From a bacterium (GTDB lineage Bacteria > UBA10199 > 2-02-FULL-50-16 > JAJFLM01): a stretch of DNA of 64,000 nt. Of the stretch, positions 27,824-59,508 are shown in pieces. Position 1 is the first letter of the stretch, and each line of letters opens with the position of its first letter. Where the stretch lies: positions 224,001 through 288,000 of the forward strand of contig CBDCFN010000016.1 of the NCBI GenBank assembly GCA_965216315.1, written 5' to 3'. The notes under the pieces were generated by a model. That model did not search any database and was not told where the DNA came from. It was given only the letters and a program-made list of their open reading frames with translations. The position numbers and the translations under genes were made by a program.

Positions 27824-30800
27824 CTACGCTTTTTCGCGTTTGCGTTGCTCGCGCCAGTTGCGGAAGCGCCGGAAGATGTTGAGGAATCTTCCCAGGCGGG
27901 TGTACCAAGGAAGTGCCATCGGTGCTTGTGAGTCGGATAGAGCTAGGGCATCGACGAAGTATTCGACGCGGTTGCGGCCGTTACGCTTGGCGCGATACAG
28001 GACCGTATCGGCGTTGCTGATGGCAACGCTAAGCGATGTTTTCTTTTCCTTTACTTCGGAGAGCTCGTCGCCGCTACCATTGCCGCCGTTTTCGATGATG
28101 CGGAAGGGAGCGACGCCAAGGCTGACCGTGATATCTAGGGAGACAGGTTTTCCGCCGGCATTCGAAGTGATCGTATTCTGCATGATACGCTCGCGGATGC
28201 GCTCGGCCATTTTCTTGGCCCCTTCTGCGCCACAGTGGCGAGCGACGAGACAAAACTCTTCACCGCCGTAGCGGGACACGATATCGGTCGGGCGCGCTTC
28301 ATCACGGATCATGTCGGTGACCTGGCGGAGGACGTCGTCGCCGACGGGATGGCCGTGGTTGTTGTTGACACGGCTGAAGTGATCAATGTCGATCATGATA
28401 ACATAGTGTTCTTTAACTCTCCCATCCGGATAACGATCTTCGCCACGGGGGTTCAACATGCTCCGTTCCAGGACACCATTTTGACTCATCAGCTTACCAT
28501 AGGTTTCGAGCCCGGTTTTATCGTCGTGCTCGGAGTCATGGAGGTGGATCGAGGCAGCCGTTGCATGGATGTCGGCTAGATCCAGGGCTTCCGCCAATAA
28601 AGCACGGACGTGGGTCGGAACAGTGGGATCAAAGAGTATCGGTGACTGGCGCAGTTCTTTTAGCCGCCTGTGTTGGGCCTTTTTATGCTCGTCGGCTCTA
28701 ATTCGCTCTTCTTCGCTTTGCTCCGGCTCATTGCTAATCTTTTCAAGCTCCCCACTGCGCGCCAATTGATTGCTGAAGAGACGGGTAAAGCCTTCATAGT
28801 CAGGACGCAACGAGAAACGTAAGGGAAGCGATTCATGTGTTCGGCTATAACTATCGAAAAACTCGCGCCCAATGCGCGTGCGATCTTCTAAGAGAAATTC
28901 CAGCAGTTCCCAGGCGTGTTTGACTTCATTCAGTTCAGCCTGTTTGTCGGGAGAGAGGCTGATATTTCGTTCTTGGAGAAAGGCATCAAAATCTTCGAAG
29001 ACGCGACGCCGTACTTCGGGGGATTCAAAATCAAATCCAATGTAAGGCATGAATGTCATTCCCTGGTCGCGGGCTTTCATGTCGAGAGCGTTGACGCCGA
29101 GTTGATATAGGAAGGCAATGATGCGTTGCATGGCGCGCCGGCTCAGCCCCGCATCCGTGCTTTGTTTTTTACGCGCGGGGTCCATCTCAGTTCGGATGCT
29201 TTCCCCCCAGGCGACCCAGTGTTCGCCGGGTTGAGGTAATTTGGGGATCCAACCTTCGAGGCTGGTTGCCAACGTGCCGTCTTCGGCTGAAATTTCAGCA
29301 CTGATATGGACACCGTTGGTATTGAAGCGTTTGAGTTTTACGCGGCTGGTGACATGGCCGCGAATATCCGTTCCGAATGCGTCACGGATGTCGCGAACCG
29401 AGACACGGCGGTGAAACAATTCTTCGAGGAGTTGCTGGGTTTCGTCTGAGTCGAACGGAAGATCGAGTTCATCCCCGATATCGATATGTTCAATCCGAGG
29501 CGGTTCCGCTGTCTTGACAACGCGCCTTGTTGCTTCATCCCAGTTTTCTTTGTAGACAAACTGCCGAATCCACCGGGCAACTTGAGTCGAGCTGGACCGG
29601 CCGATTACAAAATACATCGCCTGTTTTATGTCAATTTTAGTCGGATCAGCCGTGGGTGTGCCGTTGAGATAAGCCGGGAACGAAGCGAGGCGCACATCAA
29701 ATCCCTTGTTGGCGAGTTGCCAGGCTCTTCGCTCGGCTTCTTCAAGCGTGTCGGTAAAGACATGGACTTCGCGGGCATGAGCTGGACGATCCGTCGGGCG
29801 AAACCAATGATTGAATATGGCTTGTGCTTCCTCAGGGTCATTTTCCCAGAGTTGCGGTATGACCTTGCCAATTTCGTGCAATAAACTCTCGACGTTACGA
29901 CCGCGACCGACCATTCGTGTAGGGGCACGCAATACAATGGGCGAATTACCGTTTTCAGTTGTGATCGGTCTGGTAATAAGGCGCAAACGATCCGTTGCGG
30001 TTTGCATCTGAGTGTTATCAAGTTGGGCACCCCGCGTTTTGTCAATATCCTTGAGGGCGCTGAGTATACGCACCAGGAGGTCCGGTGGAACGACGATGGG
30101 ACTAATCTGATTCGTCCTCCGTTGCTGACGTATATGGGCGTACTCTAGATTTTGAATTTCTTCGCTGAGATCCGCGTAAGGATAATAGCTATTAAAGGCC
30201 TGTTTGGTTTGTTCAAGTAAACGTCTTCGCGGTGCGTCGCCCAGATTGGTCCAATCACTGAAGCTTAATGCGAGTTGCCGGACCCACGGATATTTGGAGG
30301 CATCAATCGCGGGCAAGGCTATTTGGATATCGCGAATCAGTGTCGCGTTTTCGGCTAGAGTTGGCGTCATGGCAAGGGCGCGCCGGTATTGGTCAATTTC
30401 CGGTTGAAATTCTTCAAAGCCTTCGATCGGTCTGAGGAGCTGTTCGGCCATATCGAGGGTTAGGCGGCGGACGGCGACGGTCGTATGCGCCCAATTGCCT
30501 AGAAAACGAATGATTTCGATGGAATGAAATGCCCGGTCGAATTCTTTTGCAGTTGCATTTGGTCCCAGTTGCGCGCGCGTTCGAGCCTTCATCAATGTTT
30601 GGACGGCCGTATTGACTAGCGGCGGTACTTGGCGCGGACCTGAATAATCAGCCGCGGCGATATGCCGATCAATACGTTGTGCCAGCGGACTCAAGGGTTG
30701 GTGTCCGCGCAAAGTCGCATTGGTATCATCGAGCATCTGCGTGCGCGTCGACTGCGGCAATTGATTGATGGTGCCCAGCGCCGTGCTGAATGTCGCGAGA

Positions 30801-30868
30801 TTATTAATCAGTCCGACATTGGGTACACTGGTCGCAATCGAATAGGGTAGGGGCATGAGTTGTACCAT
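27824..30868 (-). CDS. Large multidomain protein: unknown N-terminus, GNAT-like middle, C-terminal diguanylate cyclase
   Basis: IDIDHFSRVNNNHGHPVGDDVL, RPTD I-site, RYGGEEF, ADTVLYRAKRNGRN. The middle motif GLSRRAMQRII...GV..LDMKA...G..F...GFDF resembles GNAT motifs A/B (weaker call). Confidence 0.8.
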   Translation of the reverse strand: MVQLMPLPYSIATSVPNVGLINNLATFSTALGTINQLPQSTRTQMLDDTNATLRGHQPLSPLAQRIDRHIAAADYSGPRQVPPLVNTAVQTLMKARTRAQLGPNATAKEFDRAFHSIEIIRFLGNWAHTTVAVRRLTLDMAEQLLRPIEGFEEFQPEIDQYRRALAMTPTLAENATLIRDIQIALPAIDASKYPWVRQLALSFSDWTNLGDAPRRRLLEQTKQAFNSYYPYADLSEEIQNLEYAHIRQQRRTNQISPIVVPPDLLVRILSALKDIDKTRGAQLDNTQMQTATDRLRLITRPITTENGNSPIVLRAPTRMVGRGRNVESLLHEIGKVIPQLWENDPEEAQAIFNHWFRPTDRPAHAREVHVFTDTLEEAERRAWQLANKGFDVRLASFPAYLNGTPTADPTKIDIKQAMYFVIGRSSSTQVARWIRQFVYKENWDEATRRVVKTAEPPRIEHIDIGDELDLPFDSDETQQLLEELFHRRVSVRDIRDAFGTDIRGHVTSRVKLKRFNTNGVHISAEISAEDGTLATSLEGWIPKLPQPGEHWVAWGESIRTEMDPARKKQSTDAGLSRRAMQRIIAFLYQLGVNALDMKARDQGMTFMPYIGFDFESPEVRRRVFEDFDAFLQERNISLSPDKQAELNEVKHAWELLEFLLEDRTRIGREFFDSYSRTHESLPLRFSLRPDYEGFTRLFSNQLARSGELEKISNEPEQSEEERIRADEHKKAQHRRLKELRQSPILFDPTVPTHVRALLAEALDLADIHATAASIHLHDSEHDDKTGLETYGKLMSQNGVLERSMLNPRGEDRYPDGRVKEHYVIMIDIDHFSRVNNNHGHPVGDDVLRQVTDMIRDEARPTDIVSRYGGEEFCLVARHCGAEGAKKMAERIRERIMQNTITSNAGGKPVSLDITVSLGVAPFRIIENGGNGSGDELSEVKEKKTSLSVAISNADTVLYRAKRNGRNRVEYFVDALALSDSQAPMALPWYTRLGRFLNIFRRFRNWREQRKREKA

Positions 30869-30874
30869 GGCCGC

Positions 30875-30900
30875 TTTTCGGCGTAAATTTGCGAAAGTTG
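30875..30900 (-). promoter_or_regulatory. Sigma28-like promoter motif
   Basis: CAAC-TTTCGCAAATTTAC-GCCGAAAA, 6 nt before the ATG. Confidence 0.65.
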
Positions 30901-31028
30901 TGCGAATAGGGAGCTATATTTATCCAGATTCGCAGGGATTCGAAAAAAATGGCTCATTCAGCCTAAAAAAAGGGCAAATGTTCGAAAGTTTTTGAAAAAT
31001 AAGGTCTTTTTAGGGACTTTTCATGAGA

Positions 31029-31054
31029 CAACTTTTCTCGCCGGCGTCCGAAAC
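31029..31054 (+). promoter_or_regulatory. Sigma28-like promoter motif
   Basis: CAAC-TTTTCTCGCCGGCG-TCCGAAAC, 6 nt before ATG 31061. Confidence 0.55.
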
Positions 31055-31060
31055 GGACCT

Positions 31061-31834
31061 ATGAGCGTCTCTCTCCACGGCGTTTTCGTTGCCAATGCCC
31101 TGGTTCAGACCGGGGCCTATACGATGGCGCAGCAGGTGCAAAGCGCGGAGCCCAGCCTCGTGTCCCTCCTCCTGGGGAGAGACTTGCCGTCTCCTCATCA
31201 GACAATTTTTTTCACTTCCAATGCAGGCAATGGTTCCAGTGTACGCCAAAGCCATCACCCCTATCGTTCGCGTATTACGTCGGAATTTTATAGACTTGGG
31301 ATCGCCCGTGATGTGCTTGAATATGTTTTAGCGGGTGTTCAACAAACGGATAAAGACCACTTTATTTTAAGACATCGATTTGCTGATCGGCCAATGGTCT
31401 ATGAGGTGCGTGTTGGTGATGGCGACACGATGCCGTCGACAGCATTGGAAGGGGGGATCTATAATCCTGAAGAGGAACGCTTTTTTGGCGTTAAATTTCT
31501 GGCCCATGTTCATTCCCTGCGTCAGGGCATCATTCCATCGGGAAGAGACCTTCACTTGGCATCGATGTGGGCCTACTTTCATCCCGATGAGTGGATCAGT
31601 CACCTCGTGCTGGGAATCACTGCGGGGGAGCCGACCTTTGTCAAATTGCTCAGTCGCTATGACAGTGAAACAGATCGGACAGCGATGTCATTTGAGTTTG
31701 CGGTGAATTACCCAATGCAGGAGCGCCAGTCACTGCACTTACAGGTTGCACGTCGGTTGAACACGTTTATTGAAGAAAGGGATTCAACTGGCGCTCGCGA
31801 CCAATACTCGTCTCCGGCCCATGTCCGGGGATGA
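31061..31834 (+). CDS. Hypothetical protein with JAMM/MPN-like metal motif
   Basis: LAHVHSLRQGIIPSGRDL (HxH-x8-S-x2-D). ATG 31061 preferred because the promoter motif lies just upstream. 3' end overlaps the convergent gene. Confidence 0.55.
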   Translation: MSVSLHGVFVANALVQTGAYTMAQQVQSAEPSLVSLLLGRDLPSPHQTIFFTSNAGNGSSVRQSHHPYRSRITSEFYRLGIARDVLEYVLAGVQQTDKDHFILRHRFADRPMVYEVRVGDGDTMPSTALEGGIYNPEEERFFGVKFLAHVHSLRQGIIPSGRDLHLASMWAYFHPDEWISHLVLGITAGEPTFVKLLSRYDSETDRTAMSFEFAVNYPMQERQSLHLQVARRLNTFIEERDSTGARDQYSSPAHVRG

Positions 31835-32417
31835 CAATAACTTCATCCGGTAAAGTGAGGAATTTCTTTTTGATTGAGGCAATTTCTTGGTTGTAGTCGC
31901 CTTTCCATAGATCGGTCCGGCCGATGCTGCCTGCAAAGAGCGTATCGCCCGGCATGAGGAGGCCGGCCTCGCGAAGGGCCGGAAAGAAAAAGGCGCAGGA
32001 ACCGGGTGTGTGTCCCGGCGAGTGCAGGACCTCCCCCTTGAGAGCTCCCGCGGTAATTTCTTGGGCGTCGACCAAAAATTCATCCGGCGGAACCGGCGTC
32101 ATGGTTTTTTCGGGCGGGACTCCTAAGAAGGCGCCTTGTTCGGCCATCTTTTCATAGAGAAAGAGATCCTCTTTGTGGAGCAGGACGCGGGCATTGGTTT
32201 CTTTTTGCAGGGCCGTTGTTCCGCCGATGTGATCGATGTGGGTATGCGTGTGCACGATGCTTTTGACCTTCAGACCGTGTTGGCGCACCCGGTCCATAAT
32301 GGCTTGGACCTCATCTCCCGGGTCGATGACGATGGCCTCCTTGGTCTCGGGATCTCCCAAGATGATGCAGTTGCATTGAAAGGGTCCGACCGGAACGACT
32401 TCTAATATTTCATTCAT
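31767..32417 (-). CDS. MBL-fold metallo-hydrolase (glyoxalase II-like)
   Basis: THTHIDHIG (HxHxDH), SPGHTPGS, GDTLFAGSIGRTDL, PGHGPETSIGRE. Confidence 0.93.
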   Translation of the reverse strand: MNEILEVVPVGPFQCNCIILGDPETKEAIVIDPGDEVQAIMDRVRQHGLKVKSIVHTHTHIDHIGGTTALQKETNARVLLHKEDLFLYEKMAEQGAFLGVPPEKTMTPVPPDEFLVDAQEITAGALKGEVLHSPGHTPGSCAFFFPALREAGLLMPGDTLFAGSIGRTDLWKGDYNQEIASIKKKFLTLPDEVIVIPGHGPETSIGRERQLNPFLQ

Positions 32418-32469
32418 AACGGGGTCTTAGAGGGTTTTGTGACAAGTAGCAAGCCGGGTGTTTTCCAAG

Positions 32470-32495
32470 CAACTTCTTGGCCTCCATGACGATCA
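32470..32495 (+). promoter_or_regulatory. Sigma28-like promoter motif (weaker match)
   Basis: CAAC-TTCTTGGCCTCCAT-GACGATCA. Confidence 0.4.
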
Positions 32496-32540
32496 ACCCG
32501 CGACGTTTAATATGGTCTCAGGGGGTTATTGGGGTTAGGT

Positions 32541-33926
32541 ATGATTCTAGCGAGTACGACGGGCTGGCTGGCACCGGGTTTGCTGCTGGCCGGCGCGTCC
32601 CATAACAATTTTTCAGGAGGAGCGGTCGGCATGCAGGCCTCTCCCGTTTCCGGTGCGTCCGCCGTCAGCGAGCCGGCTGTAGCGCCGTCATCTTCAGGCA
32701 GCTATGTCCCGCCGGCCGAGCCCAGCCACGTGACACTGCGCGGGAGCGCGAGCCGTGGCGATAGCCGCGTCTTGATCTTTGTCGAATCGTTTTTTGGATT
32801 CGGTCATTTTAATATCATCGATCTGTTAGCGAAGGAACTGATTCGACAAGGCCTCGCTGTTGGTGTCGCTTCGAGTACCTTCAATCTGTGCGGTCATTCG
32901 TTTGACTTCGGTGGTGCCGAGCAATTCTATCTGCCTCCCCTAGGAGTCAATGCCAAAGGCGAAAGATGTAAACCGAATCAAGAGCGGTTCCGTGATACTG
33001 AAGATGATTATGTAGATACCATCTATGCAGGAACACGACAGGTTCTGGACTCTTTCGAACCGGAACTTGTCGTCTATGAATTGTATCCTTTTATGATGCC
33101 CTGGCGCGATGGCTCTGCGAGGGCCGTCAATGACCACTTTCAGGCCAAGGGTCGGCCTTTGCCCGAGCGGATCTCGCTGTGCCGTGACATTATTCATGCA
33201 AGCAAGCCGTGGAGGGTATTAAAACGGCTCGATACCTATTGCAGTCGGCTCATGATCCGGGGGGATAGCCGTTTTGCGCGCTTGGAAGAAAGTCAAGAAC
33301 ACTGGGCGAAAATAACCCAACCCATCGACTATGTTGGTAACTTTGCGGCGCAAGAGCCCCAACTGACATCGACCGCATTTCAAGATGACATCGTTATCTT
33401 CGGTGGTGGAGGCTATCGCGCGGAAAAAGACACCCGTTTTCTTGAGGCCGTCGCCGGCATTGCGGAATTTACCGAGGCGTACCGGGATAGGTCCTTCAAG
33501 GTAGTACTGGGCGAAGGGACCCCGGATCACGTCGTGGATCAGATGCTCGCAGCGGGCAAGGGAAACACCGAGTTAATGAAGCCCGTGAGTTCCGGTGTCT
33601 TCAAGCAGATGTTGGCGGGAGCTGCCGCTGTCGTGACACGGGCCGGGTATAATACAACTTTTGAATTGGTTCGGATGAAGAAACCCTTTGTCGTCGTGCC
33701 GCGAGAACTTAAAGAACAGCGCTTGCGTGCGACGATGTTAGAACGTAGCGGTTATGGCCGGGTCGTTCGAGAAAGAGATCTCTCCGCTGAGGCGTTGGCC
33801 CGATCTTTAGATACGTGCATCACGCCTATCAATGGTTCCGCCATGCAATTTAAATTTGACGGAGCCGAACGAATGGCCCAATCGTTGGCGGCGTTGTTGG
33901 AGCGATACCGCGAGGCCCGCGTTTAG
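32541..33926 (+). CDS. GT-B fold glycosyltransferase with a low-complexity N-terminal extension
   Basis: GFGHF, ELYPF, GGGG loop, TRAGYNTTFE, VVVPR..KEQ..RA (GT28/GT1-like C-terminus); Ser/Ala/Pro-rich leader of about 70 aa. Confidence 0.8.
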   Translation: MILASTTGWLAPGLLLAGASHNNFSGGAVGMQASPVSGASAVSEPAVAPSSSGSYVPPAEPSHVTLRGSASRGDSRVLIFVESFFGFGHFNIIDLLAKELIRQGLAVGVASSTFNLCGHSFDFGGAEQFYLPPLGVNAKGERCKPNQERFRDTEDDYVDTIYAGTRQVLDSFEPELVVYELYPFMMPWRDGSARAVNDHFQAKGRPLPERISLCRDIIHASKPWRVLKRLDTYCSRLMIRGDSRFARLEESQEHWAKITQPIDYVGNFAAQEPQLTSTAFQDDIVIFGGGGYRAEKDTRFLEAVAGIAEFTEAYRDRSFKVVLGEGTPDHVVDQMLAAGKGNTELMKPVSSGVFKQMLAGAAAVVTRAGYNTTFELVRMKKPFVVVPRELKEQRLRATMLERSGYGRVVRERDLSAEALARSLDTCITPINGSAMQFKFDGAERMAQSLAALLERYREARV

Positions 33927-33939
33927 TCTACTTAACTTT

Positions 33940-34170: not shown

Positions 34171-34203
34171 AGGCGTCCTACGTGAGTTGGAGTTTCCTGT
34201 AAA

Positions 34204-34474: not shown

Positions 34475-35080
34475 GTGCAAGACCGTGTCCGCCAATTTGA
34501 TGGGCCGGTGGCAAAACGCATGCGCCCTTATTTCGAAGCGGCCGGTGTCGCTTACCCGCCGCAACGGTTGACCCTCATCGGTTTAAAGGAGGAAAAAGTC
34601 CTCGAGCTCTACGCCGCCGCTGCCAAGGACAAGCCCGAGCGCCTGATTCGCGCTTATCCCATCCTGGCAGCGAGCGGCGGCCCGGGGCCCAAACTTCGTC
34701 AGGGCGATCTCCAGGTGCCGGAAGGTCTTTACCGAATTGAGCTCCTCAATCCGAATAGCCGCTTTCATCTTTCCTTGCGAGTGAATTACCCCAACGCCGA
34801 CGACAAGGCCCGCGCCCGCGAGGACGGGCGCAGCAACTTAGGGGGTGATATCATGATACACGGTAACGCGGTTTCCATTGGGTGCATTGCCGTTGGCGAT
34901 GAGGCGGCGGAAGATCTCTTTGTGTTGGCCGCTGCCGTGAAGGTCGGGAACATAAAAGTGATCTTGAGCCCGATGGATTTTAGAAATCGGAGGCTTCAAG
35001 AAAAGGTTGCGCCGGTTTGGACGAAGGAATTGTATTCCAGGATTCGGGCGGAGCTGGGGAAGTACGCGAAGCAGCTCTAG
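34475..35080 (+). CDS. L,D-transpeptidase family (YkuD domain, YafK/DpaA-like) protein
   Basis: GPKLRQGDLQVPEGLY, NPNSRFHLSLRVNYPN, IMIHG...SIGC catalytic His/Cys. 5' end is uncertain. Confidence 0.88.
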   Translation: MQDRVRQFDGPVAKRMRPYFEAAGVAYPPQRLTLIGLKEEKVLELYAAAAKDKPERLIRAYPILAASGGPGPKLRQGDLQVPEGLYRIELLNPNSRFHLSLRVNYPNADDKARAREDGRSNLGGDIMIHGNAVSIGCIAVGDEAAEDLFVLAAAVKVGNIKVILSPMDFRNRRLQEKVAPVWTKELYSRIRAELGKYAKQL

Positions 35081-36021: not shown

Positions 36022-36033
36022 GCAATCTCTTAA

Positions 36034-36972
36034 TTACTCTTTGTCGACCAGGCTTCGCGCCAATGCCCAGTTGGGATCCGTGTCGCGATTGGCTGTACCG
36101 GCAAAAGTGTCGAAGTAGGTCGTGCGGAACGATTCACTCTCGCGGATAGCGAGGTTGACGGTATCGAGCGCGACGTGATGACCGCTGCGGGCGCGGCGGA
36201 CGAGAGCGGCGTCGTAGGCCCATTGACTTAAGTCCGTGTCAGTTTCTAACCCGTCGTTTTCGCTCTGTTCGTTGCGGGCCAGCCAGAGCCAATGTGCGGC
36301 GTGATGGGAGCCGCGGAGGCGCGCCATTTTGGCTAAACGCAAACGTTCCGTGAGGGCGTCGGCGTCGGCGCCGGCCGCGGTTGGATAGACATCCATGGCG
36401 GCTTGTGCAAGGAAATGTGTCTCACGAATGCGGTCGTTGCGACGCGCGCAGGAGGCGGCGCCGACGAGGTAGATGGCCATGTCCGGCCAATCGGAGTTCC
36501 ATTGGAGCAATTCGATGAGTTGGGTTCGATTGGTCTCCTGGCGTTGGCGGGCAGCGGCGTTCGCGACGCGTGTCGTAACAAAGAGCGCTCCGCCTAATAA
36601 AAGTATCACGCCGCTTGGACTCGTGACGATATCCCCCAGATAAGCCAAAGCAGTGCCGCCGACCGTGGCGGCGTAGGCAATGATGCGGTCCCGCAGGAAA
36701 AACCGACTGGCTTCCTGGCGATCGAACGGCAGGGGCGTAAACTCTTGATAGACCTGTACCTCAGGGAGGGAAGCGATTTGTGTCAAGGGGACCGGCGTGT
36801 CCTCAATCCGGCGGATAAATCCCAATGTCTGGGCCCGTCCGATGGGAAGGCGCTGATCAATCCCGGCCATCAGTTCGTCACGCAGGACCTGTGCGCCATC
36901 GATTCGGGCGTGCCAGAGGACGGCATGGGTGGCAAAGGCAGCGGGAAAAGATGAGGTCGAGGCGAGGATCAT
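36034..36972 (-). CDS. Hypothetical protein with two internal hydrophobic helices
   Basis: 312-aa ORF; N-terminus MILASTSS resembles MILASTTG of the 32541 gene. Confidence 0.6.
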   Translation of the reverse strand: MILASTSSFPAAFATHAVLWHARIDGAQVLRDELMAGIDQRLPIGRAQTLGFIRRIEDTPVPLTQIASLPEVQVYQEFTPLPFDRQEASRFFLRDRIIAYAATVGGTALAYLGDIVTSPSGVILLLGGALFVTTRVANAAARQRQETNRTQLIELLQWNSDWPDMAIYLVGAASCARRNDRIRETHFLAQAAMDVYPTAAGADADALTERLRLAKMARLRGSHHAAHWLWLARNEQSENDGLETDTDLSQWAYDAALVRRARSGHHVALDTVNLAIRESESFRTTYFDTFAGTANRDTDPNWALARSLVDKE

Positions 36973-36981
36973 GGCCCCCTA

Positions 36982-37006
36982 GTATCGGCGAATCGTGCGA
37001 AAGTTG
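36982..37006 (-). promoter_or_regulatory. Sigma28-like promoter motif
   Basis: CAAC-TTTCGCACGATTC-GCCGATAC, 9 nt before the ATG. Confidence 0.65.
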
Positions 37007-37115: not shown

Positions 37116-37158
37116 TGGGACATAGCTCAGTTGGTAGAGCAGTACTGTTGAATGGTGC
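37116..37158 (+). pseudogene. 5' tRNA fragment (D-arm plus degenerate anticodon arm)
   Basis: GGGACATAGCTCAGTTGGTAGAGCA is a canonical acceptor-5'/D-arm; no GTTCGA T-loop or CCA follows at the expected distance. Confidence 0.65.
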
Positions 37159-37289
37159 GCCGGCATCCTAGGTGAAGTCCTCCCAGCGCTGGCCCTGCCT
37201 GTCGGTAGGCAGGCCGGCGGGCCCACCCAGAGGCCAAAGCTGAAGCCGCGAGCGCTCCAGTCTTGTTCGATTTCAGAGACATTTATCAT
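37150..37289 (-). pseudogene. Disrupted, truncated cupin-like gene
   Basis: MINVSEIEQDWSARGFSFGLWVGPP; removing a 20-bp insert restores PPGQRWEDFT, then a stop. Confidence 0.55.
37194..37213. repeat. 20-bp palindromic REP-like insertion
   Basis: CCTGCCTGTCGGTAGGCAGG (stem CCTGCCT/AGGCAGG). Confidence 0.75.
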
Positions 37290-37324
37290 AATAAGTGAAT
37301 AATATAAGATAGTTATAATTTAAA

Positions 37325-37367
37325 TATTCTAAATAGAATATTATTATAATAAATAGAATATTATTCT
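37325..37367. promoter_or_regulatory. AT-rich operator-like repeats upstream of the HTH gene
   Basis: TATTCTA-AA-TAGAATA inverted repeat; TAAATAGAATATTATT repeated at 37330 and 37350. Confidence 0.55.
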
Positions 37368-37400
37368 GTTATCTAGCTAATTTTATGGTATATTTTAGGA

Positions 37401-38180
37401 ATGGAAGCTCAAAATATTCAAGCAGCCATTGCCGCCGGCCTGAAGCGCCTGCGCAAGGAGCGTCGGCGCACCCAGGTCGAAGTGGCGGCCCTCTTGGGGC
37501 TGTCGCAGGCTCAGCTTTCCAAGGTTGAAAGCGGGCGCGCCTCGCTGAGTGCGGAGCAACTCGTGCAACTCTTGCGGCACTTCAGTTTGCCGCTCAACTA
37601 TTTTGTCGAGGCCGACAAAAGTATGAAGAGTGAAGATGATGCACAATTGCAGAATGCCCTCGTGCATCTGGGCGCGACACATTTGCGTACGGTGCCGAAT
37701 GTCGCCGTACCAGAAAGATTGGTTGCACCTGAAGCAGTCATCTTGGAGGTTTTGCTTGCGCCGTCGGCACGCTTTGTCACGGCCTTATCACCTGTGATAG
37801 TCCAGCAGTGTGAAAGTCTCAACTTTCATCGCATCGCTGCAAAATTGCAGACACATGGCATTGAATACCGGATATGGTGGGTTGTAGACGGTATTTATCA
37901 GGCTGTCCATGAACGTCTGAAAACACCTTATCTTTCCCGTCGTATTGACCGGCTCTACCAACGAGCTTATTTGCTACTGGGGCGTAAGAAATTGGATGTT
38001 GCAACTGTGCAAGAGCAGCTCGGCGATCGTGAAGACGAGCTGGATCGAGATTTGATCTCGAAAAAAACGATCAAATTGGTCAAGCAAAGCCGGGATAAGC
38101 TAGCAAAACATTGGCATATCGTGACACGAATCAAAAAGGCGGATTTTGAACAGGCCTTGAAGGATACGGAAGAAACATGA
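37401..38180 (+). CDS. XRE-family HTH protein with extended C-terminal domain (putative antitoxin)
   Basis: LKRLRKERRRTQVEVAALLGLSQAQLSKVESG; ATGA overlap with the next gene. Confidence 0.8.
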   Translation: MEAQNIQAAIAAGLKRLRKERRRTQVEVAALLGLSQAQLSKVESGRASLSAEQLVQLLRHFSLPLNYFVEADKSMKSEDDAQLQNALVHLGATHLRTVPNVAVPERLVAPEAVILEVLLAPSARFVTALSPVIVQQCESLNFHRIAAKLQTHGIEYRIWWVVDGIYQAVHERLKTPYLSRRIDRLYQRAYLLLGRKKLDVATVQEQLGDREDELDRDLISKKTIKLVKQSRDKLAKHWHIVTRIKKADFEQALKDTEET

Positions 38181-38773
38181 TTGAAAGATTCCTCACTGAC
38201 ATTGAAAAACAATGGAGGTCGATGGGTGACGAGCCAATTGTGCTCAAGATTATCGGGAGCACAGCGCTTTTTTTGCAGACGGATTATGTGCGCGGCACCA
38301 AAGATACGGATTTCCTGCAGATTCATGACGTCTCACCGGCTATTTGGGATCAATTGAAAAGTATTGCTGGCAAGGGCACGCCACTGGCGAACGCACATCG
38401 TCTTTATATCGATCTTGTCCCACCAGGATTGGCTTTTCTCCCGGGACAACCTGCCTTCCATTTACATCAGGAATTGAATGAGAAACTGAGCTACTTCCAA
38501 GTTCAGGTACTAGACATTCACGATGTTATAGTCAGTAAATTAAAGACATTCCGTTCAGTAGATCTCGAAGACCTCGGGGCTATGGTAGAGCGGGATCTGT
38601 TGGATCCTAAAAGAATTGTCGAGCGCTTTGAATTGGCGAAAGAGCAGTGGCTTATGGGGTCGCGTGCAGAGCATATTAGAAAATGTATCGCCAATCTCCA
38701 CACCGTGCAGCGCGATTACCTTTTCGTTCCGGAATCGGCAATAGACGTCCCCAATTGGGTTGATGCCTTGTGA
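38177..38773 (+). CDS. Nucleotidyltransferase, DUF6036/AbiEii-like (putative toxin)
   Basis: IIGSTAL...RGTKDTDF (Pol-beta GS + DxD), DVIVSKL..FRSVDLEDL. Confidence 0.75.
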   Translation: MIERFLTDIEKQWRSMGDEPIVLKIIGSTALFLQTDYVRGTKDTDFLQIHDVSPAIWDQLKSIAGKGTPLANAHRLYIDLVPPGLAFLPGQPAFHLHQELNEKLSYFQVQVLDIHDVIVSKLKTFRSVDLEDLGAMVERDLLDPKRIVERFELAKEQWLMGSRAEHIRKCIANLHTVQRDYLFVPESAIDVPNWVDAL

Positions 38774-53263: not shown

Positions 53264-53299
53264 CTCCTATATCCTCGAAGAGAGACGTGAATATTTATT

Positions 53300-53463: not shown

Positions 53464-53510
53464 CTTAAGGAAAATCCATCGTATAAATAGTAGGGTTAGT
53501 CAAGGGGCGC

Positions 53511-54531: not shown

Positions 54532-54715
54532 GGCTCAAAACTCCATAAGTTAGCATAATTCAGGAAATAATCCGGCCTGGCCCCGCGTGGGCCCAAGACG
54601 AAAAGCGCTTTTAACCCGGAATCGATTGCCGCACAAGCCTTTTTGCTCAAATCATCAGCACATCGTGCCGATCTCGCTTGCCTAAACCTTTAATTTTCAC
54701 TAGCTTAGCGCGGTT

Positions 54716-55126
54716 TTGGTCTATCGCGTCACGAAGGAAATTCGCTTTTGCTATGCTCACCGCCTCTTGGATTACGAAGGGCCGTGCGCTCACCTGCATG
54801 GGCATAATGCGCGGGTTGAGATCGAACTATCAGCTCCCGAACTGGATGAGCGGGGCATGGTTTTCGAGTTTTCCGAGCTCAAAGAGGTCCTGCAGGGCTG
54901 GATGGATAACACGCTCGATCACCGAACCTTGTTGCGAGAGGATGACCCCCTAGCGAATTTGTTGCAGGAAATCGGGGAACCTGTCTATTTAATGAAGCGG
55001 AATCCGACAGCGGAGGCCATCGCCGAGGAAATATATCTTTACGCCCGGCAGCAGGACCTGCCGGTTTCGCAGGTGAAAGTATGGGAAACCTGCACCGCCT
55101 GCGCGGTTTATACGGAAAAGGAGTGA
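54716..55126 (+). CDS. queD: 6-carboxy-5,6,7,8-tetrahydropterin synthase
   Basis: F.YAHRL, CAHLHGHN, GMV.EF..LK, LDH, NPTAE, VWET. Confidence 0.9.
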   Translation: MVYRVTKEIRFCYAHRLLDYEGPCAHLHGHNARVEIELSAPELDERGMVFEFSELKEVLQGWMDNTLDHRTLLREDDPLANLLQEIGEPVYLMKRNPTAEAIAEEIYLYARQQDLPVSQVKVWETCTACAVYTEKE

Positions 55127-55130
55127 ATCG

Positions 55131-55976
55131 ATGCGCAAGATCTTAGTCGTTAAAAATGCTGCTGAAGAGGGTTTGGGCGTCATTGCCGACGAATTGAAAC
55201 TTGCGGAGATCGAATGGGATACCATCGAGCCTTATGCCCGCCAGACAATTCCAACGGGTGAAGCGATTGATGAGGCTGGTTACAAGGGCTTGATTGTTTT
55301 GGGCGGACCGATGAGCGCAAATCATGACATTGCCTTTCCTTTCTTGCTTGATGAGATTCAATTGATTCGCGACATGTTGGAACGCAAGTTGCCGATGCTG
55401 AATGTTTGTTTAGGAGCGCAGTTGTTGGCGCGGGCTTGCGGCGTGTCTCTTGCCTACGGTGGTGTCAAAGAAGTCGGTTGGCATTCCGTGCACCTTAATG
55501 AATGGTATACCAAACGGAACCCGCTGTTCTTTCAGTTGCCTCTGGAGTTTATGACTTTTCATTGGCACCAAGATACTTTTGATATCCCGACGGAAGGTTA
55601 CCGCCTTGCCGGTTCCGAACTCTATCCCAATCAGGCCTTCTGCGTGCAAGGCAACGCAGTCGGAATTCAGTTTCATCCTGAATTGACGAAAGACATGATT
55701 GAAGGGTGGATTGAAAAAGATAGGCAGCGCAGCCATCCTTTCTTGGATGCCGCCCAGGAAGACATGATCCTCAACCACATTGACGAATATCTGCCGGCGC
55801 AACGGGATATCGTACACAAACTTATTTATGGTTTTGCCACGCTGATGAGGCCGGATGATTACCGCCGTCCTGCCGTGGAAGAAAAACCCGAAGCGGAAGC
55901 CGCTTCCGAAGTGACAAGCGAGACGGAGCCGAGCGCGACAACGGGCGAAGATACGTCGACTGAAAAAATCGCCTAA
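55131..55976 (+). CDS. Class I glutamine amidotransferase
   Basis: LGGPMSA, VCLGAQ (Cys), WHQDTF, QFHPE (His/Glu); acidic tail. Confidence 0.9.
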   Translation: MRKILVVKNAAEEGLGVIADELKLAEIEWDTIEPYARQTIPTGEAIDEAGYKGLIVLGGPMSANHDIAFPFLLDEIQLIRDMLERKLPMLNVCLGAQLLARACGVSLAYGGVKEVGWHSVHLNEWYTKRNPLFFQLPLEFMTFHWHQDTFDIPTEGYRLAGSELYPNQAFCVQGNAVGIQFHPELTKDMIEGWIEKDRQRSHPFLDAAQEDMILNHIDEYLPAQRDIVHKLIYGFATLMRPDDYRRPAVEEKPEAEAASEVTSETEPSATTGEDTSTEKIA

Positions 55977-55994
55977 ATTAGAAAGTGCTTGCCG

Positions 55995-56585
55995 TTAAGC
56001 GTCGTGGGCCAGCCGCTTGCCGCTCCAATGGATCAACCAAAAACCGCCGACCAAGAGGACGACAAAGAGCAGCGATGCGATATTGAAGTAATTCGTGATC
56101 AGGTCCTGGATTTCTGCGCCCCAGACCTTGAGGGCCGCGCCAATGAGAAAAAAGCGAGCAGGGCGACTCAGGGCGGATGCCAGCAGGAAATTAATAAAGC
56201 GGATGCTGAAGGCCCCGGCGGTGATCGTGAAGACCTTATAAGGAATCGGCGTGAATCCCGCGATGCCGATCGCCCAGTAATCATACTTTTTATACAAGCG
56301 TTCGGCGGCATTCCGCTTGGATTCTGAGAGGAAACGCTTGATGATCGGGCGTCCGCCCCAGCGACCAATGGCAAAGCCAAACATCCCGCCACTTACCGAG
56401 GCCAAGCTGCAGATAAACGCGTACCACAAGGCATTAGCGGGATCGGCGACGCCCATTGCGATGAGGAGCACATCGGGCGGAATGGGAAAAAAACTCGATT
56501 CGGCGAAGGCGAGCAGAAAGAGGGCGCTCTGGGCGTTGGGATGGCTGGCCCAGGCGAGGGTCCAGTTGTAAAGATCGTGGAGCAT
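55995..56585 (-). CDS. YqaA/VTT (DedA superfamily) membrane protein
   Basis: AFAESSFFPIPPDVLL, AGFTPIPYKVFTITAG, SR.ARFF. Confidence 0.9.
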   Translation of the reverse strand: MLHDLYNWTLAWASHPNAQSALFLLAFAESSFFPIPPDVLLIAMGVADPANALWYAFICSLASVSGGMFGFAIGRWGGRPIIKRFLSESKRNAAERLYKKYDYWAIGIAGFTPIPYKVFTITAGAFSIRFINFLLASALSRPARFFLIGAALKVWGAEIQDLITNYFNIASLLFVVLLVGGFWLIHWSGKRLAHDA

Positions 56586-56630
56586 GGGGAAGTTTTGTCA
56601 TTATTAAATATTACAATGCAATTAGATCTT

Positions 56631-56646
56631 GTAGGGGCACCCCTAC
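56631..56646. repeat. Minimal GTAG-type REP palindrome
   Basis: GTAGGGG-CA-CCCCTAC in an otherwise AT-rich intergenic region. Confidence 0.5.
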
Positions 56647-56712
56647 GTCTTGCCATTGTGGTTAGATATCGCTATAAATGAATACCTATTCATTTTTTTA
56701 AAGGAGGCCGCC

Positions 56713-58647
56713 ATGGCTGCCAACGACCCGACGAGTAAAGTCACGGAACTCAAGCAGGAACACGATGAGGCGATGGAAGTCGCCGAGGAGGCGCGCGAGA
56801 CGGAGTGGACGCGACCGAGTTTTGCGGCGGGTCTCTTTATGGGCAAGGTCGACGGCAAGCTTGTTACTCCCTATCCGGAATCCACGCCGGAACAAATTGT
56901 CGAAGGGGAGGCGCTCTTGAAAAAGGTTGAGGCCTTTATGAAGGAAAATGTCGATCCCGTCGCGGTCGACCGTGATAAAAAAATCCCACCGCATGTCGTA
57001 CAGGGCCTCAAGGACATGGGGCTCTTTGGCCTCAAGTTGCCGAAGGAATATGGCGGGCTCGGCATGTCGCAAGTCTATTACAGTAAAATCGTGGCCCTGA
57101 TTGGAAGCCATTGTGCGTCGACAGCCGTGTTGATGTCGGCTCATCAATCAATTGGTGTGCCTCAGCCGCTCAAGATATTCGGCACGAAAGAGCAGAAGAA
57201 GAAGTACCTGCCGCAACTCGCGAAGGGCGCAATCTCGGCCTTTGCCTTGACGGAGCCGGGCGTCGGCTCCGACCCCGCTAAGATGACGACGATGGCGGAA
57301 CTGAGTCAGGATGGGAAACATTATATTCTCAACGGAGAAAAACTGTGGTGCACCAATGGAACGGTCGCGGACCTTTTTATTGTCATGTCCCGAACACCGG
57401 ACAAAGTCATCAAGGGCAAACCTCGCAAGCAAATTACCGCCTTTATTGTTGAAGCGGATACACCGGGCGTTGAAATCGTGCATCGCTGTGAATTTTTGGG
57501 GCTCAAAGGAATCGAGAACGGATTGATTCGTTTTAATAACGTTAAGGTTCCGGTTGAGAATATTATCTGGGAAGAGGGTAAGGGTCTCAAGATTGCGTTG
57601 ACGACCTTGAATAATGGACGACTCACCTTGCCGGCGGCCTGTACGGCAGGCATGAAGCAATGTTTGAATATCTCGCGCAAGTGGTCACAAGATCGCGTCC
57701 AATGGGGGGCGCCTATCGGTAAGCACGAAGCGATTGCGAATAAGCTCGGCTGGATGGCCGCGACGGCCTACGGCACGGAGGCGGCGACCTATTACGCGTG
57801 TGGCCTGGTGGATCGAGGCAATGCCGATATTCGGCTCGAAGCTGCGATGGCCAAGATGTTTGCGTCCGAGCAGGTCTGGAAGGCGATCGATGAGACGCTG
57901 CAGATTCGCGGGGGCCGTGGCTATGAAACAGAGTCCTCCCTGTTGGCGCGTGGTGAGAAGCCGCTTGGAATTGAACGGATGATGCGGGATGCGCGCATCA
58001 ATATGATCATCGAAGGGTCTTCAGAGATTATGCGCCTTTTTATCGCCCGCGAGGCCCTGGATCCGCACATGAAGATCGGTGCCGATTTGATTAATCCTCG
58101 TTCATCAATGGGCAAGAAGATCGTGTCCTTTGTGAAGGCGAGTTGCTTTTACGCTTGGTGGTATCCCAGCCGTTGGTTTCCAACTTGGCTCTTCAAACGG
58201 CATGGTCGCTTTGGTCCCTTTGCGAAACATATGCGCTTTGTCGAACGCGCCAGCAAACGGCTCGCGCGCAATATCTTCCACGGGATGATGCGTTATCAGG
58301 CGGGACTGGAACGTCGTCAGATGTTCTTGGGTCGCATTGTCGAGATTGGTGCCGAACTTTTCGTTATCAGTGCCGCTTGTTCGCGCGCCCTGCACGACAT
58401 TAATGTCGGTAAGCCGCGCCAATCCGTTCATGACATGGCGGATCTTTTCTGTCGCCAGTCACGGCACCGCATCAAGAAACTCTTCCGGGCCTTATGGCGC
58501 AACGAGGATGCCCGTACCTATCGCGTCGCGCAGGAGTTTTTGCGGGATGAGCATGCCTGGCTCGAAGACGGCATTATCAAACCGCATGAGACTGCCGTCG
58601 AACAGTTGGAAGCCTTTGTGCGGAACGCTGAAAAGGCTGCGAGTTAG
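56713..58647 (+). CDS. Acyl-CoA dehydrogenase (VLCAD-like length)
   Basis: AFALTEPGVGSD, LNGEKLWCTNG, RVQWGAPIG, QIRGGRGY, RDARINMIIEGSSEI; AAGGAGG RBS. Confidence 0.93.
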   Translation: MAANDPTSKVTELKQEHDEAMEVAEEARETEWTRPSFAAGLFMGKVDGKLVTPYPESTPEQIVEGEALLKKVEAFMKENVDPVAVDRDKKIPPHVVQGLKDMGLFGLKLPKEYGGLGMSQVYYSKIVALIGSHCASTAVLMSAHQSIGVPQPLKIFGTKEQKKKYLPQLAKGAISAFALTEPGVGSDPAKMTTMAELSQDGKHYILNGEKLWCTNGTVADLFIVMSRTPDKVIKGKPRKQITAFIVEADTPGVEIVHRCEFLGLKGIENGLIRFNNVKVPVENIIWEEGKGLKIALTTLNNGRLTLPAACTAGMKQCLNISRKWSQDRVQWGAPIGKHEAIANKLGWMAATAYGTEAATYYACGLVDRGNADIRLEAAMAKMFASEQVWKAIDETLQIRGGRGYETESSLLARGEKPLGIERMMRDARINMIIEGSSEIMRLFIAREALDPHMKIGADLINPRSSMGKKIVSFVKASCFYAWWYPSRWFPTWLFKRHGRFGPFAKHMRFVERASKRLARNIFHGMMRYQAGLERRQMFLGRIVEIGAELFVISAACSRALHDINVGKPRQSVHDMADLFCRQSRHRIKKLFRALWRNEDARTYRVAQEFLRDEHAWLEDGIIKPHETAVEQLEAFVRNAEKAAS

Positions 58648-58671
58648 CGGCACTTCGCAAGGATTCGCACA

Positions 58672-58697
58672 CAACCCAGTGCCTTTTGAGTCGAAAA
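58672..58697 (+). promoter_or_regulatory. Sigma28-like promoter motif
   Basis: CAAC-CCAGTGCCTTTTGA-GTCGAAAA, 7 nt before the ATG. Confidence 0.5.
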
Positions 58698-58704
58698 GGG
58701 GGGC

Positions 58705-59508
58705 ATGCAATTCCTTGCCTCCATGTCGCTCAGTGTCCCCTTGCTGGCGGCTTCGAGTTCCAATATCTCTACGCCGCCCGTTACGCCTGATGCGGTGAAT
58801 CGGCCGCGGTTGACACTCGTGCCGCCGATGGATACAGGGGCCGGTCCTTCGCTCACCGATGCGATGTACGAGCGCTCTGTTTTGGAAGATGCGATCGATA
58901 ACTTTTTGTCACAGGAATTGAGGCGCGAGTCCAGTGATGCCCAATCATTGGCGCGCATCGCGGATCAACTGACAGCGACCATTAGGCGCAATCTGCCGGT
59001 GCTCTCGGCGACCTTATCGACGGAGCAGCGCGATAGAGTCCGAGCCATTGCTGGGAAGGCCAGTGTCTCTGAACAAAGCGCCCTGATTGAATACTTAGCC
59101 AATGCAAGCCTGTTTAGTTCACTCCGTATCTATTATGATTTGCAGCCGCAGGAGCGCGTTTCGATGCATGATCTTGCAGGTGGTTTTATTGCCTTGTCGC
59201 AGAACGGTTCCATCATCAGTAGTTCGCCGCATGTGCGACCGACATCCAATCGTATGATTCATTATATGCGCATGCCCTCTCGCAACATTAACATGGACCC
59301 GGCGGTCAGTACTCGCGGACAACTCTTGGAAGATGTCCAGGTGGGGCATCGTTTTAAGAGCTCCGCTTTCCGTAGTTCTCAGGTGACGCTGCTTCTTTAT
59401 ATCGACCCTTCAAAGGCCCGCGAGTTCGAGCAGCTCCGCGAGTGGGTGGCGACGGCGACGAGTTCCATCCATCATAGCGTCATCGGCCGCCACGATTCCG
59501 ACTCTTAA
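58705..59508 (+). CDS. Hypothetical protein with Ser/Pro-rich N-terminus
   Basis: 267-aa ORF; MQFLASMSLSVPLLAASSSNISTPPVTP; no recognised family. Confidence 0.6.
   Translation: MQFLASMSLSVPLLAASSSNISTPPVTPDAVNRPRLTLVPPMDTGAGPSLTDAMYERSVLEDAIDNFLSQELRRESSDAQSLARIADQLTATIRRNLPVLSATLSTEQRDRVRAIAGKASVSEQSALIEYLANASLFSSLRIYYDLQPQERVSMHDLAGGFIALSQNGSIISSSPHVRPTSNRMIHYMRMPSRNINMDPAVSTRGQLLEDVQVGHRFKSSAFRSSQVTLLLYIDPSKAREFEQLREWVATATSSIHHSVIGRHDSDS

Follow-up and report, generated by a model that had tools for sequence, protein, structure and literature searches.

Five genes scattered over a 64,000-nucleotide (nt) stretch of the assembly GCA_965216315.1 (the whole stretch is referred to as the window here) carry a similar motif upstream of their start codons, which raises the questions of which σ factor reads this motif, how many genes it controls, and where their products act. 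The stretch comes from UBA10199, a lineage without a cultured member whose name, judging from titles and the starts of abstracts, is used in the literature as a taxon label. An earlier reading of the window, made from its letters only (referred to as the sequence-only reading), had proposed that a divergent σ28-family factor drives these genes as a dispersed set of exported effectors acting on a host or prey cell. On the basis of the whole genome and its relatives, we favor a broader explanation, in which we have somewhat more confidence than doubt. According to this explanation, a FliA (σ28) paralog encoded in a nonflagellar type III secretion system (T3SS) cluster would read (c/a)(g/a)CAACTTT-N11-GCCGATAA at ~250 promoters. 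The regulon would be a global program composed of T3SS cluster genes, probably the σ factor's own operon, lytic enzymes, phospholipases, lipoproteins, and regulators of the DUF4423 type, and it would include ~100 to 120 mostly lineage-specific proteins with a common N-terminal tag. This tag would consist of aliphatic residues at positions 2 to 4, a Ser/Thr-rich segment at positions 5 to 10, and a soft (S/P)-L-L-A-(A/S)-(S/T)-S core at around positions 12 to 20, all within ~30 charge-free residues, and may direct its carriers to the T3SS, which would deliver them to another cell (prey or host) or place them on the cell surface.

The genome that holds the window (G000) is 98.3% complete and consists of 2.96 Mb on 16 contigs, to which the coordinates beginning with C16 and C15 refer. 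Genes and start codons were taken from our own simple caller, which yielded 2,416 genes. An iterated two-block position weight matrix (PWM), trained on this genome as was the tag model described below, converged on (c/a)(g/a)CAAC(t/a)TTT followed by GCCGATAA. In the −10 element, built from 353 sites, the successive positions reach G 51%, C 53%, C 97%, G 100%, A 100%, T 75%, A 68%, and A 69%. The spacing between both blocks provides a control that is independent of PWM training. The genome-wide scan suggested by the sequence-only reading found CAAC-N15-CCGAWA 81 times, versus 12 to 33 times at 13 other spacings, and the AACTT version of this exact pattern 34 times at the preferred spacing, versus 1 to 11 times at others. 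With a threshold of 16 bits, the PWM detected 241 sites at a spacing of 15, a further 53 and 41 at spacings of 16 and 17, and 10 to 30 at each of 19 other spacings, including 13 at a spacing of 14. Of the sites, 159/241 are located within −30 to +60 nt of a called gene start versus 12/237 control-spacing sites, and an ATG that opens a reading frame of at least 60 amino acids (aa) is located 6 to 11 nt past CCGATAA at 76/241 sites, most often at 7 and 10 nt, versus 6/237 controls. We searched 81 genomes of the phylum, from 23 families and 66 genera, for the exact pattern CAAC-N15-CCGATAA; all of them contain it, with 3 to 69 copies per genome versus 0 to 5 for the reversed control. These genomes are kin, and their counts are not independent of each other. 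We are highly confident that the motif marks a real promoter regulon.

For the regulon set, we combined thresholds of 16 to 20 bits with spacings of 14 to 17, which yielded 297 sites. Of these, 250 were assigned to 247 genes (10.2% of the 2,416 calls), 8 are internal to genes, and 39 are without a gene. The count is approximate because the caller missed at least one true target, the gene at position 31061 of the window. The regulon of five genes proposed earlier has thus to be replaced by one of ~247 targets, about 10% of all gene calls. Its members are clustered, given that 89/247 adjoin another regulon gene (47 ± 7 expected), and they are richer in GC (0.538 and 0.533 versus 0.511). One array, C16:2164750-2197048, contains ~15 genes on the same strand, mostly without a Pfam family, each with a near-identical promoter (CCGCAACTTTCGCAA...GCCGATAA) and with a common upstream sequence (GAATTTTCCG).

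The short distance between many sites and their ATG bears on the mode of translation. Since transcription usually starts ~7 nt past a −10 element, mRNAs with an ATG 6 to 11 nt past this element would begin at the start codon or within a few bases of it. We therefore consider it likely that a class of leaderless or near-leaderless mRNAs exists, and about one third of the ~250 promoters would belong to it. Among 60 promoter loci from 10 relatives, taken in contig order, 19 have an ATG 5 to 12 nt past the box, compared to 7/24 for the same exact pattern in the genome studied here.

The motif closely resembles a σ28 promoter. The Escherichia coli σ28 consensus is TAAAGTTT-N11-GCCGATAA, and in register with it our motif reads xCAACTTT-N11-GCCGATAA: all eight −10 positions fit the σ28 box, the 11-bp spacer is equal, and the −35 element CAACTTT keeps the AA and TTT positions of the E. 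coli AAAGTTT. The sequence-only reading had named the σ28 family correctly in this respect, but its contrast of a TAAA with a CAAC −35 element is mostly an effect of register, because the in-register alignment leaves only two changed −35 positions. Among the σ70-family genes, we identified five, namely, RpoD, an RpoH-like protein, two extracytoplasmic function (ECF) σ factors, and one FliA/WhiG-like protein; a σ54 gene is also encoded and turned up in a random control set. The search for a fliA-like σ factor thus returned exactly one gene, C16:350511-351410, which lies inside the single nonflagellar T3SS cluster. Its product is a group 3 σ factor of ~275 to 300 aa, whose best matches are TIGR02479 FliA_WhiG (132.9 bits, E = 1e-38) and the WhiG/FliA equivalogs, all below the curated cutoffs, and an ortholog with 57 to 84% identity is present in 31/31 genomes tested. 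On this basis, we regard it as very probable that the FliA paralog is the cognate σ factor of the motif, the binding itself being predicted from sequence. A motif site also lies 5′ of gene 347385, with which the run of same-strand genes including the σ gene begins; autoregulation is thus plausible.

The T3SS cluster occupies C16:339083-372364. Its only FHIPEP protein is SctV (806 bits, over the cutoff; the FlhA model stays below its cutoff), and with regard to flagellin, rod, and hook, we obtained no Flagellin_N or Flg_bb_rod match in this 98.3% complete genome. The gene order starts with sctV, two FHA/YscD-like genes, sctJ (348456), two small open reading frames (ORFs), and the σ gene (350511-351410); it continues with a conserved gene for a protein of ~160 aa, a FliG_C-like gene, sctL/fliH (352867), sctN (353614), sctO, and a FliK/SctP-like gene; and it ends with fliM- and fliN-like genes, fliO, sctR, sctS, sctT, orphan genes, and two genes for tetratricopeptide repeat (TPR) proteins, one of them SycD/LcrH-like (75.6 bits, below the cutoff). 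The gene sctU is located outside the cluster, and the small cluster ORFs had no family matches in Pfam or NCBIfam. The ~160-aa gene directly 3′ of the σ gene was considered as an FlgM-like anti-σ factor and dropped, as an alignment revealed a conserved C-terminal ELLAIQA...E.EL motif; this motif is reminiscent of inner-rod SctI proteins, although the protein has no Pfam or NCBIfam match.

The association between the σ factor and the T3SS is stable among the relatives. The gene order around the σ gene was kept in 12/12 loci examined, σ and sctV lie 9 to 18 kb apart on one contig in at least 13 relatives, and an SctV-type FHIPEP protein is present in 31/31 genomes tested. Flagellin was found in only 3 of these 31 genomes, and all three have a second FHIPEP protein with a higher Pfam score. 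At least two of the flagellated relatives (G022 and G029) also encode a second, distant FliA-like protein beside this second FHIPEP gene (flhA), and we conclude that the σ factor of the T3SS cluster is the paralog devoted to the nonflagellar system. By eye, 4/4 flagellin genes of the flagellated relatives (G022, G029, and G014) are preceded by (T)nAAGTT(T)-N11-12-TCCGT(T/C) in place of the CAAC...CCGATAA box, which suggests two σ28 paralogs with separate promoter specificities; the flagellin-type box is anecdotal, given that its loose genome-wide count did not exceed the reversed control in any of five genomes.

Sites of the motif in or beside the cluster precede 333925 (an M23 peptidase), 347385, 360590, 362938, and 370814. 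Two of these genes, 360590 and 362938, follow directly 3′ of sctT and combine a motif promoter with a charge-free N terminus. The first (C16:360590-362743) encodes a tagged protein of 717 aa without a family match and with an HEAAH string that could be a zinc protease motif. The second is one of four paralogous orphans after sctT (362938, 364685, 366258, and 368233; C16:362938-370038) whose last ~130 aa are conserved among them up to a final ...LMRF(A); they are flanked by the TPR, SycD/LcrH-like genes. These paralogs had no match in Pfam or NCBIfam, and a profile search against PDB sequences gave a best E value of 0.056; they may be translocator or filament proteins.

The charge-free N terminus is widespread among the targets of the motif. 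The first charged residue lies past position 20 in 101/247 targets but in only 67/2,169 other genes, and the frequency of such tags is 51/85 for near-leaderless targets, 17/47 for leaders of 13 to 30 nt, and 31/96 for leaders of 31 to 120 nt. Under a generous control in which any start within 40 codons was admitted, 9.5% of the other genes qualify, or 3.6% after subtraction of strongly hydrophobic N termini. Among the 67 other charge-free genes, 15 have subthreshold promoters (at least 12 bits), versus 2.9% of the genes with charged starts, and some more are located directly 3′ of a target gene in the same orientation. In composition, the tags are raised in A, S, T, and L and slightly in N/Q, while D, E, and K are reduced 3- to 5-fold and R ∼2.5-fold. 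Given that N/Q are enriched and D/E/K/R depleted, the constraint acts on protein charge and not on codons. Residues 2 to 4 are ~40% aliphatic, residues 5 to 10 contain 31 to 49% S/T/N/Q, and residues 12 to 19 are rich in L/A. In tagged proteins, the median position of the first charged residue is 30, and few of these residues are Lys (6/101).

A Gibbs search returned the core (S/P)-(L/A/V)-L-A-(A/S)-(A/T/S)-S, which mostly starts at residues 12 to 17. In a 2-fold cross-validation, 35/101 held-out tags reached at least 9 bits, versus ~2% of other N termini and 0% of internal segments; 15% of shuffled tags reach the core score of the in-sample model. The core is real but soft. The products had been described earlier as lacking clear Sec or lipoprotein signals, and this is accurate for the tagged subset, which is charge free and non-Sec; it does not extend to the regulon as a whole, which also holds classical lipoproteins and Sec proteins. 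The peak hydropathy over 10 residues has a median of 1.59 in the tags, 5% of which reach 2.0, versus a median of 2.75 in 69 lipobox proteins, of which 90% do so. Three of four LamG paralogs with motif promoters carry the tag, with no Cys in the first 45 residues (according to our own start calls).

The T3SS export signal is an uncleaved N terminus of ~20 to 25 aa, rich in Ser/Thr, without early acidic residues, and aliphatic at positions 3 and 4. The positional composition of the tag agrees with these rules, and the tag also resembles the uncharged N termini of flagellar axial proteins, which are rich in S/T/A/L/N/Q.

Turning to the regulon content, we found no Pfam domain in 69/101 tagged targets versus 38/120 random nonregulon neighbors (E ≤ 1e-5; Fisher P = 6e-8), in line with the enrichment before orphan genes expected from the sequence-only reading. 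Untagged targets lacked Pfam domains in 21/25 cases at E ≤ 1e-5 and in 79/121 cases at the stricter E ≤ 1e-7. Among the tagged proteins that have domains are two protein kinases, two giants with nucleotide cyclase, AAA, and TPR domains, and DAG-kinase-like, GNAT, GGDEF, RelA/SpoT, and FHA proteins, together with three histidine kinase/receiver proteins, a helicase, a glycosyltransferase, three LamG proteins, an FGE-sulfatase protein, and pentapeptide repeats. The metabolic proteins phosphofructokinase (PFK), malic enzyme, class V aminotransferase, cysteine dioxygenase, RtcB, and a GatA-like amidase are tagged as well. Two giant genes likewise combine tag and motif promoter: C16:1632121-1639887 encodes a eukaryote-type acetyl coenzyme A (acetyl-CoA) carboxylase of 2,588 aa (ACC_central) fused to a biotin-protein ligase domain, and C15:370001-381571 encodes a 3,856-aa protein resembling fatty acid synthase (FAS-like) with acyltransferase and MaoC dehydratase domains.

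The untagged targets include two patatin-like phospholipases, a phage-type lysozyme, two SLT transglycosylases, an M23 peptidase, and a subtilase, as well as alpha-2-macroglobulin, an RTX protein, Macro, EEP, and PilZ domains, four DUF4423 regulators, and clear lipoproteins. The motif had not been noticed before housekeeping genes in the window; genome-wide, the targets do include some housekeeping-type enzymes. From the proposed dispersed effector set, the promoter, the σ factor, and the enrichment of tagged orphans remain, while the further targets are lipoproteins, Sec proteins, lytic enzymes, regulators, and T3SS genes. This mixed content indicates a global program and not purely an effector set. 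Over their whole length, tagged proteins contain 2.9% Lys versus 5.2% (P = 2e-23), with a K/(K+R) ratio of 0.27 versus 0.48, and 0.3% Cys versus 0.9% (P = 5e-13). The depletion of Cys and of Lys, which is replaced by Arg, is regulon-wide and strongest in the tagged proteins.

Is the tag, then, a T3SS signal? Computation shows where the motif lies and at which spacing, that it is conserved across the phylum and co-occurs with the σ factor and the T3SS, and that the tag is linked to the promoter; the binding σ factor, the transcription starts, and above all secretion are predictions. The character of the tag, the promoter link to a σ factor of the T3SS cluster, the two tagged genes after sctT, and a cargo that is orphan, fast in turnover, and poor in Cys and Lys point to T3SS passengers; taken together, they leave us at about the midpoint between belief and doubt on whether the tag is a T3SS export signal.

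Several observations weigh against our explanation. Gene calls and start codons rest on a crude caller, and the σ factor scores below the curated NCBIfam cutoffs for FliA/WhiG (132.9 versus 189.6 bits). The co-occurrence of σ factor and T3SS has no negative cases, because each of the genomes searched contains both. An SctC-type secretin, and with it an outer membrane route, was not found in the genome; the two secretin-family matches are a GspD equivalog (521 bits, versus 132 bits for SctC, below the cutoff) and a fragment-like protein of 252 aa among housekeeping genes. Small acidic chaperone-like neighbors are not in excess (13/101 tagged versus 258/2,169 other genes; P = 0.75). The expected early substrates, namely, the FliK/SctP-like protein and the conserved protein 3′ of the σ gene, have charged N termini, and unlikely passengers are tagged, such as the FAS-like and acetyl-CoA carboxylase giants, histidine kinases and response regulators, PFK, malic enzyme, RtcB, and the GatA-like protein. 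T3SS signals are not known to have a conserved LLA(A/S)S-like core. Finally, the charge-free N terminus occurs in only 7/60 promoter loci of the 10 relatives, compared to 5/24 in our genome with the same exact pattern (P = 0.31); the tag is therefore shared, but its frequency is poorly measured.

The strongest competing explanation keeps the promoter and the σ factor and sees in the regulon a global life-stage program similar to the attack phase of Bdellovibrio, with a tag that serves pole, membrane, or vesicle targeting, protease recognition, or another export route. A regulon of ~10% of the genes that includes lipoproteins, lytic enzymes, regulators, and metabolic enzymes would fit such a program, as would the tagging of giant enzymes and two-component proteins, the missing excess of chaperone-like neighbors, and the missing SctC secretin. 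The available text on Bdellovibrio describes FliA motifs at 92/140 attack-phase promoters and a raised GC content of attack-phase genes (PMC3627812), and the regulon studied here is GC richer as well. On the other hand, all relatives examined have the σ gene within their T3SS cluster, and the two genes right after sctT have both motif promoters and charge-free N termini. The tagged proteins are Cys poor, shifted from Lys to Arg, mostly orphans, and subject to fast turnover among relatives, and such a cargo fits exported better than resident proteins. We also know of no intracellular address that resembles the tag. Overall, we consider this competing explanation unlikely, yet worth serious attention.

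A second alternative, which we judge improbable, would make the tag a Sec signal peptide of an atypical kind, with a signal peptidase site and no basic n-region, and its cargo ordinary periplasmic or secreted proteins. The tag is indeed N terminal with a length of ~20 to 25 residues, the small residues at the end of its core (L-A-A/S-S) would be suitable for signal peptidase I, and the genome encodes a type II secretion secretin. However, only 5% of the tags reach the hydropathy of 2.0 over 10 residues that is reached by 90% of the lipobox signal peptides of the same genome, Lys and Arg are absent from the first 20 residues (by class definition) while the same regulon holds normal K/R-bearing signals, and the kinase, cyclase, GGDEF, RelA/SpoT, PFK, and helicase cargo uses cytoplasmic nucleotides. 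The least probable alternative is that one of the two ECF σ factors encoded in the genome reads the motif: AAC-N16-CGA, with its invariant CGA 16 nt on, resembles the ECF pattern AAC-N16/17-CGT, but neither ECF query was matched (E ≤ 1e-5) in 12/30 relatives (G003, G004, G006, G007, G009, G012, G016, G019, G021, G026, G028, and G030; all at least 91% complete, range 91 to 99%), which hold 10 to 55 exact motifs, and the eight −10 positions and the N11 spacer fit σ28. Some members of the phylum may thus have a very small set of σ factors.

If the tagged proteins are T3SS passengers under a FliA paralog, as we favor, bacterial prey would be the more likely target, given the lysozyme, SLT, M23, and (p)ppGpp- and c-di-GMP-type enzymes and the precedent of prey lysis with the Myxococcus T3SS (PMC12428579 and PMC12075869); the kinases, cyclases, lipid enzymes, and avoidance of lysine would fit a eukaryotic host as well. 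More tentatively, and with doubt slightly prevailing, we extend the explanation to the whole phylum (81/81 genomes), which would run a T3SS that lacks a secretin, derives from the flagellum, and has its own FliA paralog. The coincidence of promoter, leaderless start, and charge-free tag would then allow its full set of more than 100 substrate proteins per genome to be read from the sequence. An early-branching kind of T3SS would thereby gain its first catalogue of substrates, with kinases, nucleotide cyclases, (p)ppGpp- and c-di-GMP-type enzymes, and giant lipid synthesis enzymes among them, and its first export tag defined by sequence. If the tag is not a T3SS signal, more than 100 coregulated proteins, poor in Lys and Cys, would still carry an N-terminal address that is unexplained and worth explaining. 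In either case, the parts for testing are available, namely, the promoter consensus, the likely σ factor, the leaderless mode, and a candidate export tag on ~5% of the proteome.

Back in the window, all five upstream sites described by the sequence-only reading are present, with PWM scores of 23.6, 19.3, 19.3, 25.5, and 16.4 bits, and a loose pattern of the motif has 15 matches versus 6.2 ± 2.5 in shuffled sequences (0/100 shuffles reach 15). As had been noted, the ATG follows the 8-nt −10 box after 6 to 9 nt in four of the five cases; the exception is gene 32541 with ~40 nt. The N-terminal descriptions MILASTTG, MILASTSS, and MQFLASMS were also correct. The first site (30876..30900, − strand; CAACTTTCGCA...GCCGAAA, spacing of 15, 23.6 bits, ATG 6 nt past the −10 box; gene strand CAACTTTCGCAAATTTACGCCGAAAAGCGGCC-ATG) precedes the gene at 27824..30868 (− strand), which is predicted to be near-leaderless. 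Its product of 1,014 aa has its first charged residue at position 42 and a C-terminal GGDEF domain, which a domain search recovered as claimed; the GNAT-like domain also attributed to it was not found at E ≤ 0.01. The second site (31029..31053, + strand; CAACTTTTCTC...TCCGAAA, spacing of 15, 19.3 bits, ATG 6 nt past the −10 box; gene strand CAACTTTTCTCGCCGGCGTCCGAAACGGACCT-ATG) precedes the gene at 31061..31834 (+ strand), whose product of 257 aa has no Pfam family and is charge free before residue 30. Its label as JAMM-like had an HxH-x8-S-xx-D string as the sole basis, and a single-sequence AlphaFold model was unusable (mean pLDDT of 36.8).

The third site (32470..32494, + strand; CAACTTCTTGG...GACGATC, spacing of 15, 19.3 bits) is followed by the leader of ~40 nt (gene strand CAACTTCTTGGCCTCCATGACGATCA, then ~40 nt, then ATG) and by the gene at 32541..33926 (+ strand), which encodes the glycosyltransferase seen earlier, with a Glyco_tran_28_C domain confirmed by the domain search and with the tag MILASTTGWLAPGLLLAGAS. 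An ortholog was found in only 1/30 relatives (57% identity), where neither the promoter (CGCAACTTTTT...GGCGATAG, followed after 9 nt by the ATG in a leaderless layout) nor the tag (MLMVSSTALVGSGALLASSS) has been lost. The fourth site (36983..37006, − strand; CAACTTTCGCACGATTCGCCGATA, 25.5 bits) has an atypical spacing of 14, one shorter than usual, and an ATG 9 nt past the −10 box (gene strand CAACTTTCGCACGATTCGCCGATACTAGGGGGCC-ATG); the longer CAACTTTCGCA is indeed common to this site and the one ending at 30900. Its gene at 36034..36972 (− strand) encodes 312 aa without a Pfam family and with the tag MILASTSSFPAAFATHAVL. Two adjoining hydrophobic stretches at around residues 98 to 135, seen by eye, are the sole basis of its description as a protein with two transmembrane segments; a two-lobed hydrophobic domain behind an N-terminal signal is also the layout of chlamydial inclusion membrane proteins. 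The fifth site (58672..58696, + strand; CAACCCAGTG...GTCGAAA, spacing of 15, 16.4 bits, weak −35 element, ATG 7 nt past the −10 box; gene strand CAACCCAGTGCCTTTTGAGTCGAAAAGGGGGGC-ATG) precedes the gene at 58705..59508 (+ strand), whose product of 267 aa has no Pfam family and carries the tag MQFLASMSLSVPLLAASSS.

Two more sites came from the PWM. One (60269..60295, + strand; spacing of 16, 18.4 bits), absent from the sequence-only reading, lies ~100 nt 5′ of the gene at 60396..61247 (+ strand) for an untagged DUF4423/TIGR02147-type regulator with a charged N terminus. The other (34984..35009, − strand; 17.4 bits, weak −10 element) has no gene assigned, is located within a YkuD ORF on the + strand, and may be a false positive. 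Elsewhere in the window, positions 37117-37400 contain a tRNA-like 5′ half (GGGACATAGCTCAGTTGGTAGAGCAG...) and then an AT-rich stretch with repeated AATAGAATATTATT units; ARAGORN called no tRNA in the window, including this 5′ half at ~37117. Directly 3′ of the AT-rich stretch follow an HTH_3 gene (37401-38180) and a DUF6036 nucleotidyltransferase gene (38177-38773), and the region with these downstream genes may be the leftover of an integration site.

Among known systems, HrpL of Pseudomonas syringae offers a related logic: it is an ECF σ factor that is encoded in a T3SS cluster, and its hrp-box stands before dispersed effector genes. As in that system, the σ factor studied here belongs to a T3SS cluster, and targets are recognizable by a box together with a Ser-rich, acid-free N terminus with aliphatic residues at positions 3 and 4. 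Our box stands before 347385, 360590, 362938, and 370814 in the cluster and before ~240 dispersed genes. The systems differ in that ours has a FliA-type σ factor, another box, and many predicted leaderless mRNAs, and in that its tag also lacks basic residues and has a soft core. Chlamydia has a small σ28 regulon, and we know of no comparable tag there. According to the available text of two papers (PMC7482065 and PMC3333780), alternative σ factors time the expression of T3SS substrates in late chlamydial gene control and a nonflagellate keeps a FliA-type σ factor, as would be the case here; in PMC7482065, it is σ54 that is tied to effector genes.

In Bdellovibrio bacteriovorus, Karunker et al. 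(2013) describe the FliA motif TTAAG-N16-CCGATA at 92/140 attack-phase promoters (PMC3627812). The available text of that paper shares with our results a large, mostly nonflagellar program of uncharacterized, surface, and hydrolytic proteins and genes richer in GC. It differs in that the factor is the flagellar FliA, still in control of flagella, and in the −35 element TTAAG; the same text does not contain the word "leaderless" and mentions neither an N-terminal tag nor a T3SS. The needle-less T3SS of Myxococcus xanthus (T3SS*) works with a Kil/Tad pilus in prey lysis, and its substrates are unknown according to the available text of PMC12075869 and PMC12428579. With this system, ours shares a nonflagellar nature, an origin in a former "deltaproteobacterial" lineage, the absence of an SctC-type secretin, and FHA domain proteins in the cluster. 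The word "sigma" does not occur in the available text of PMC12075869, and if our tag is a T3SS signal, it would offer a route to the substrates of secretin-less T3SSs such as this one. Our cluster differs in its SycD/LcrH-like TPR chaperone candidate (75.6 bits, below the cutoff) and in the four candidate translocator or filament paralogs. Among the titles and abstracts surveyed, we found no description of a FliA paralog in a nonflagellar T3SS cluster or of the tag.

The promoters themselves can be compared with the FliA class 3 promoters of E. coli and Salmonella, with which they share the −10 element GCCGATAA, the 11-bp spacer, and a −35 element of the form AA..TTT, and the best matches of the σ factor are FliA and WhiG. 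They differ from the class 3 system by two −35 changes, by a genome in which no flagellar genes were found, by a σ gene located in a T3SS cluster, and by ~250 targets. If our explanation is correct, flagellar-style σ28 control would have survived the conversion of a flagellar export machine to protein delivery, and a tag that acts as a T3SS signal would bear on injectisome-like systems and on how their regulation evolved from that of the flagellum.

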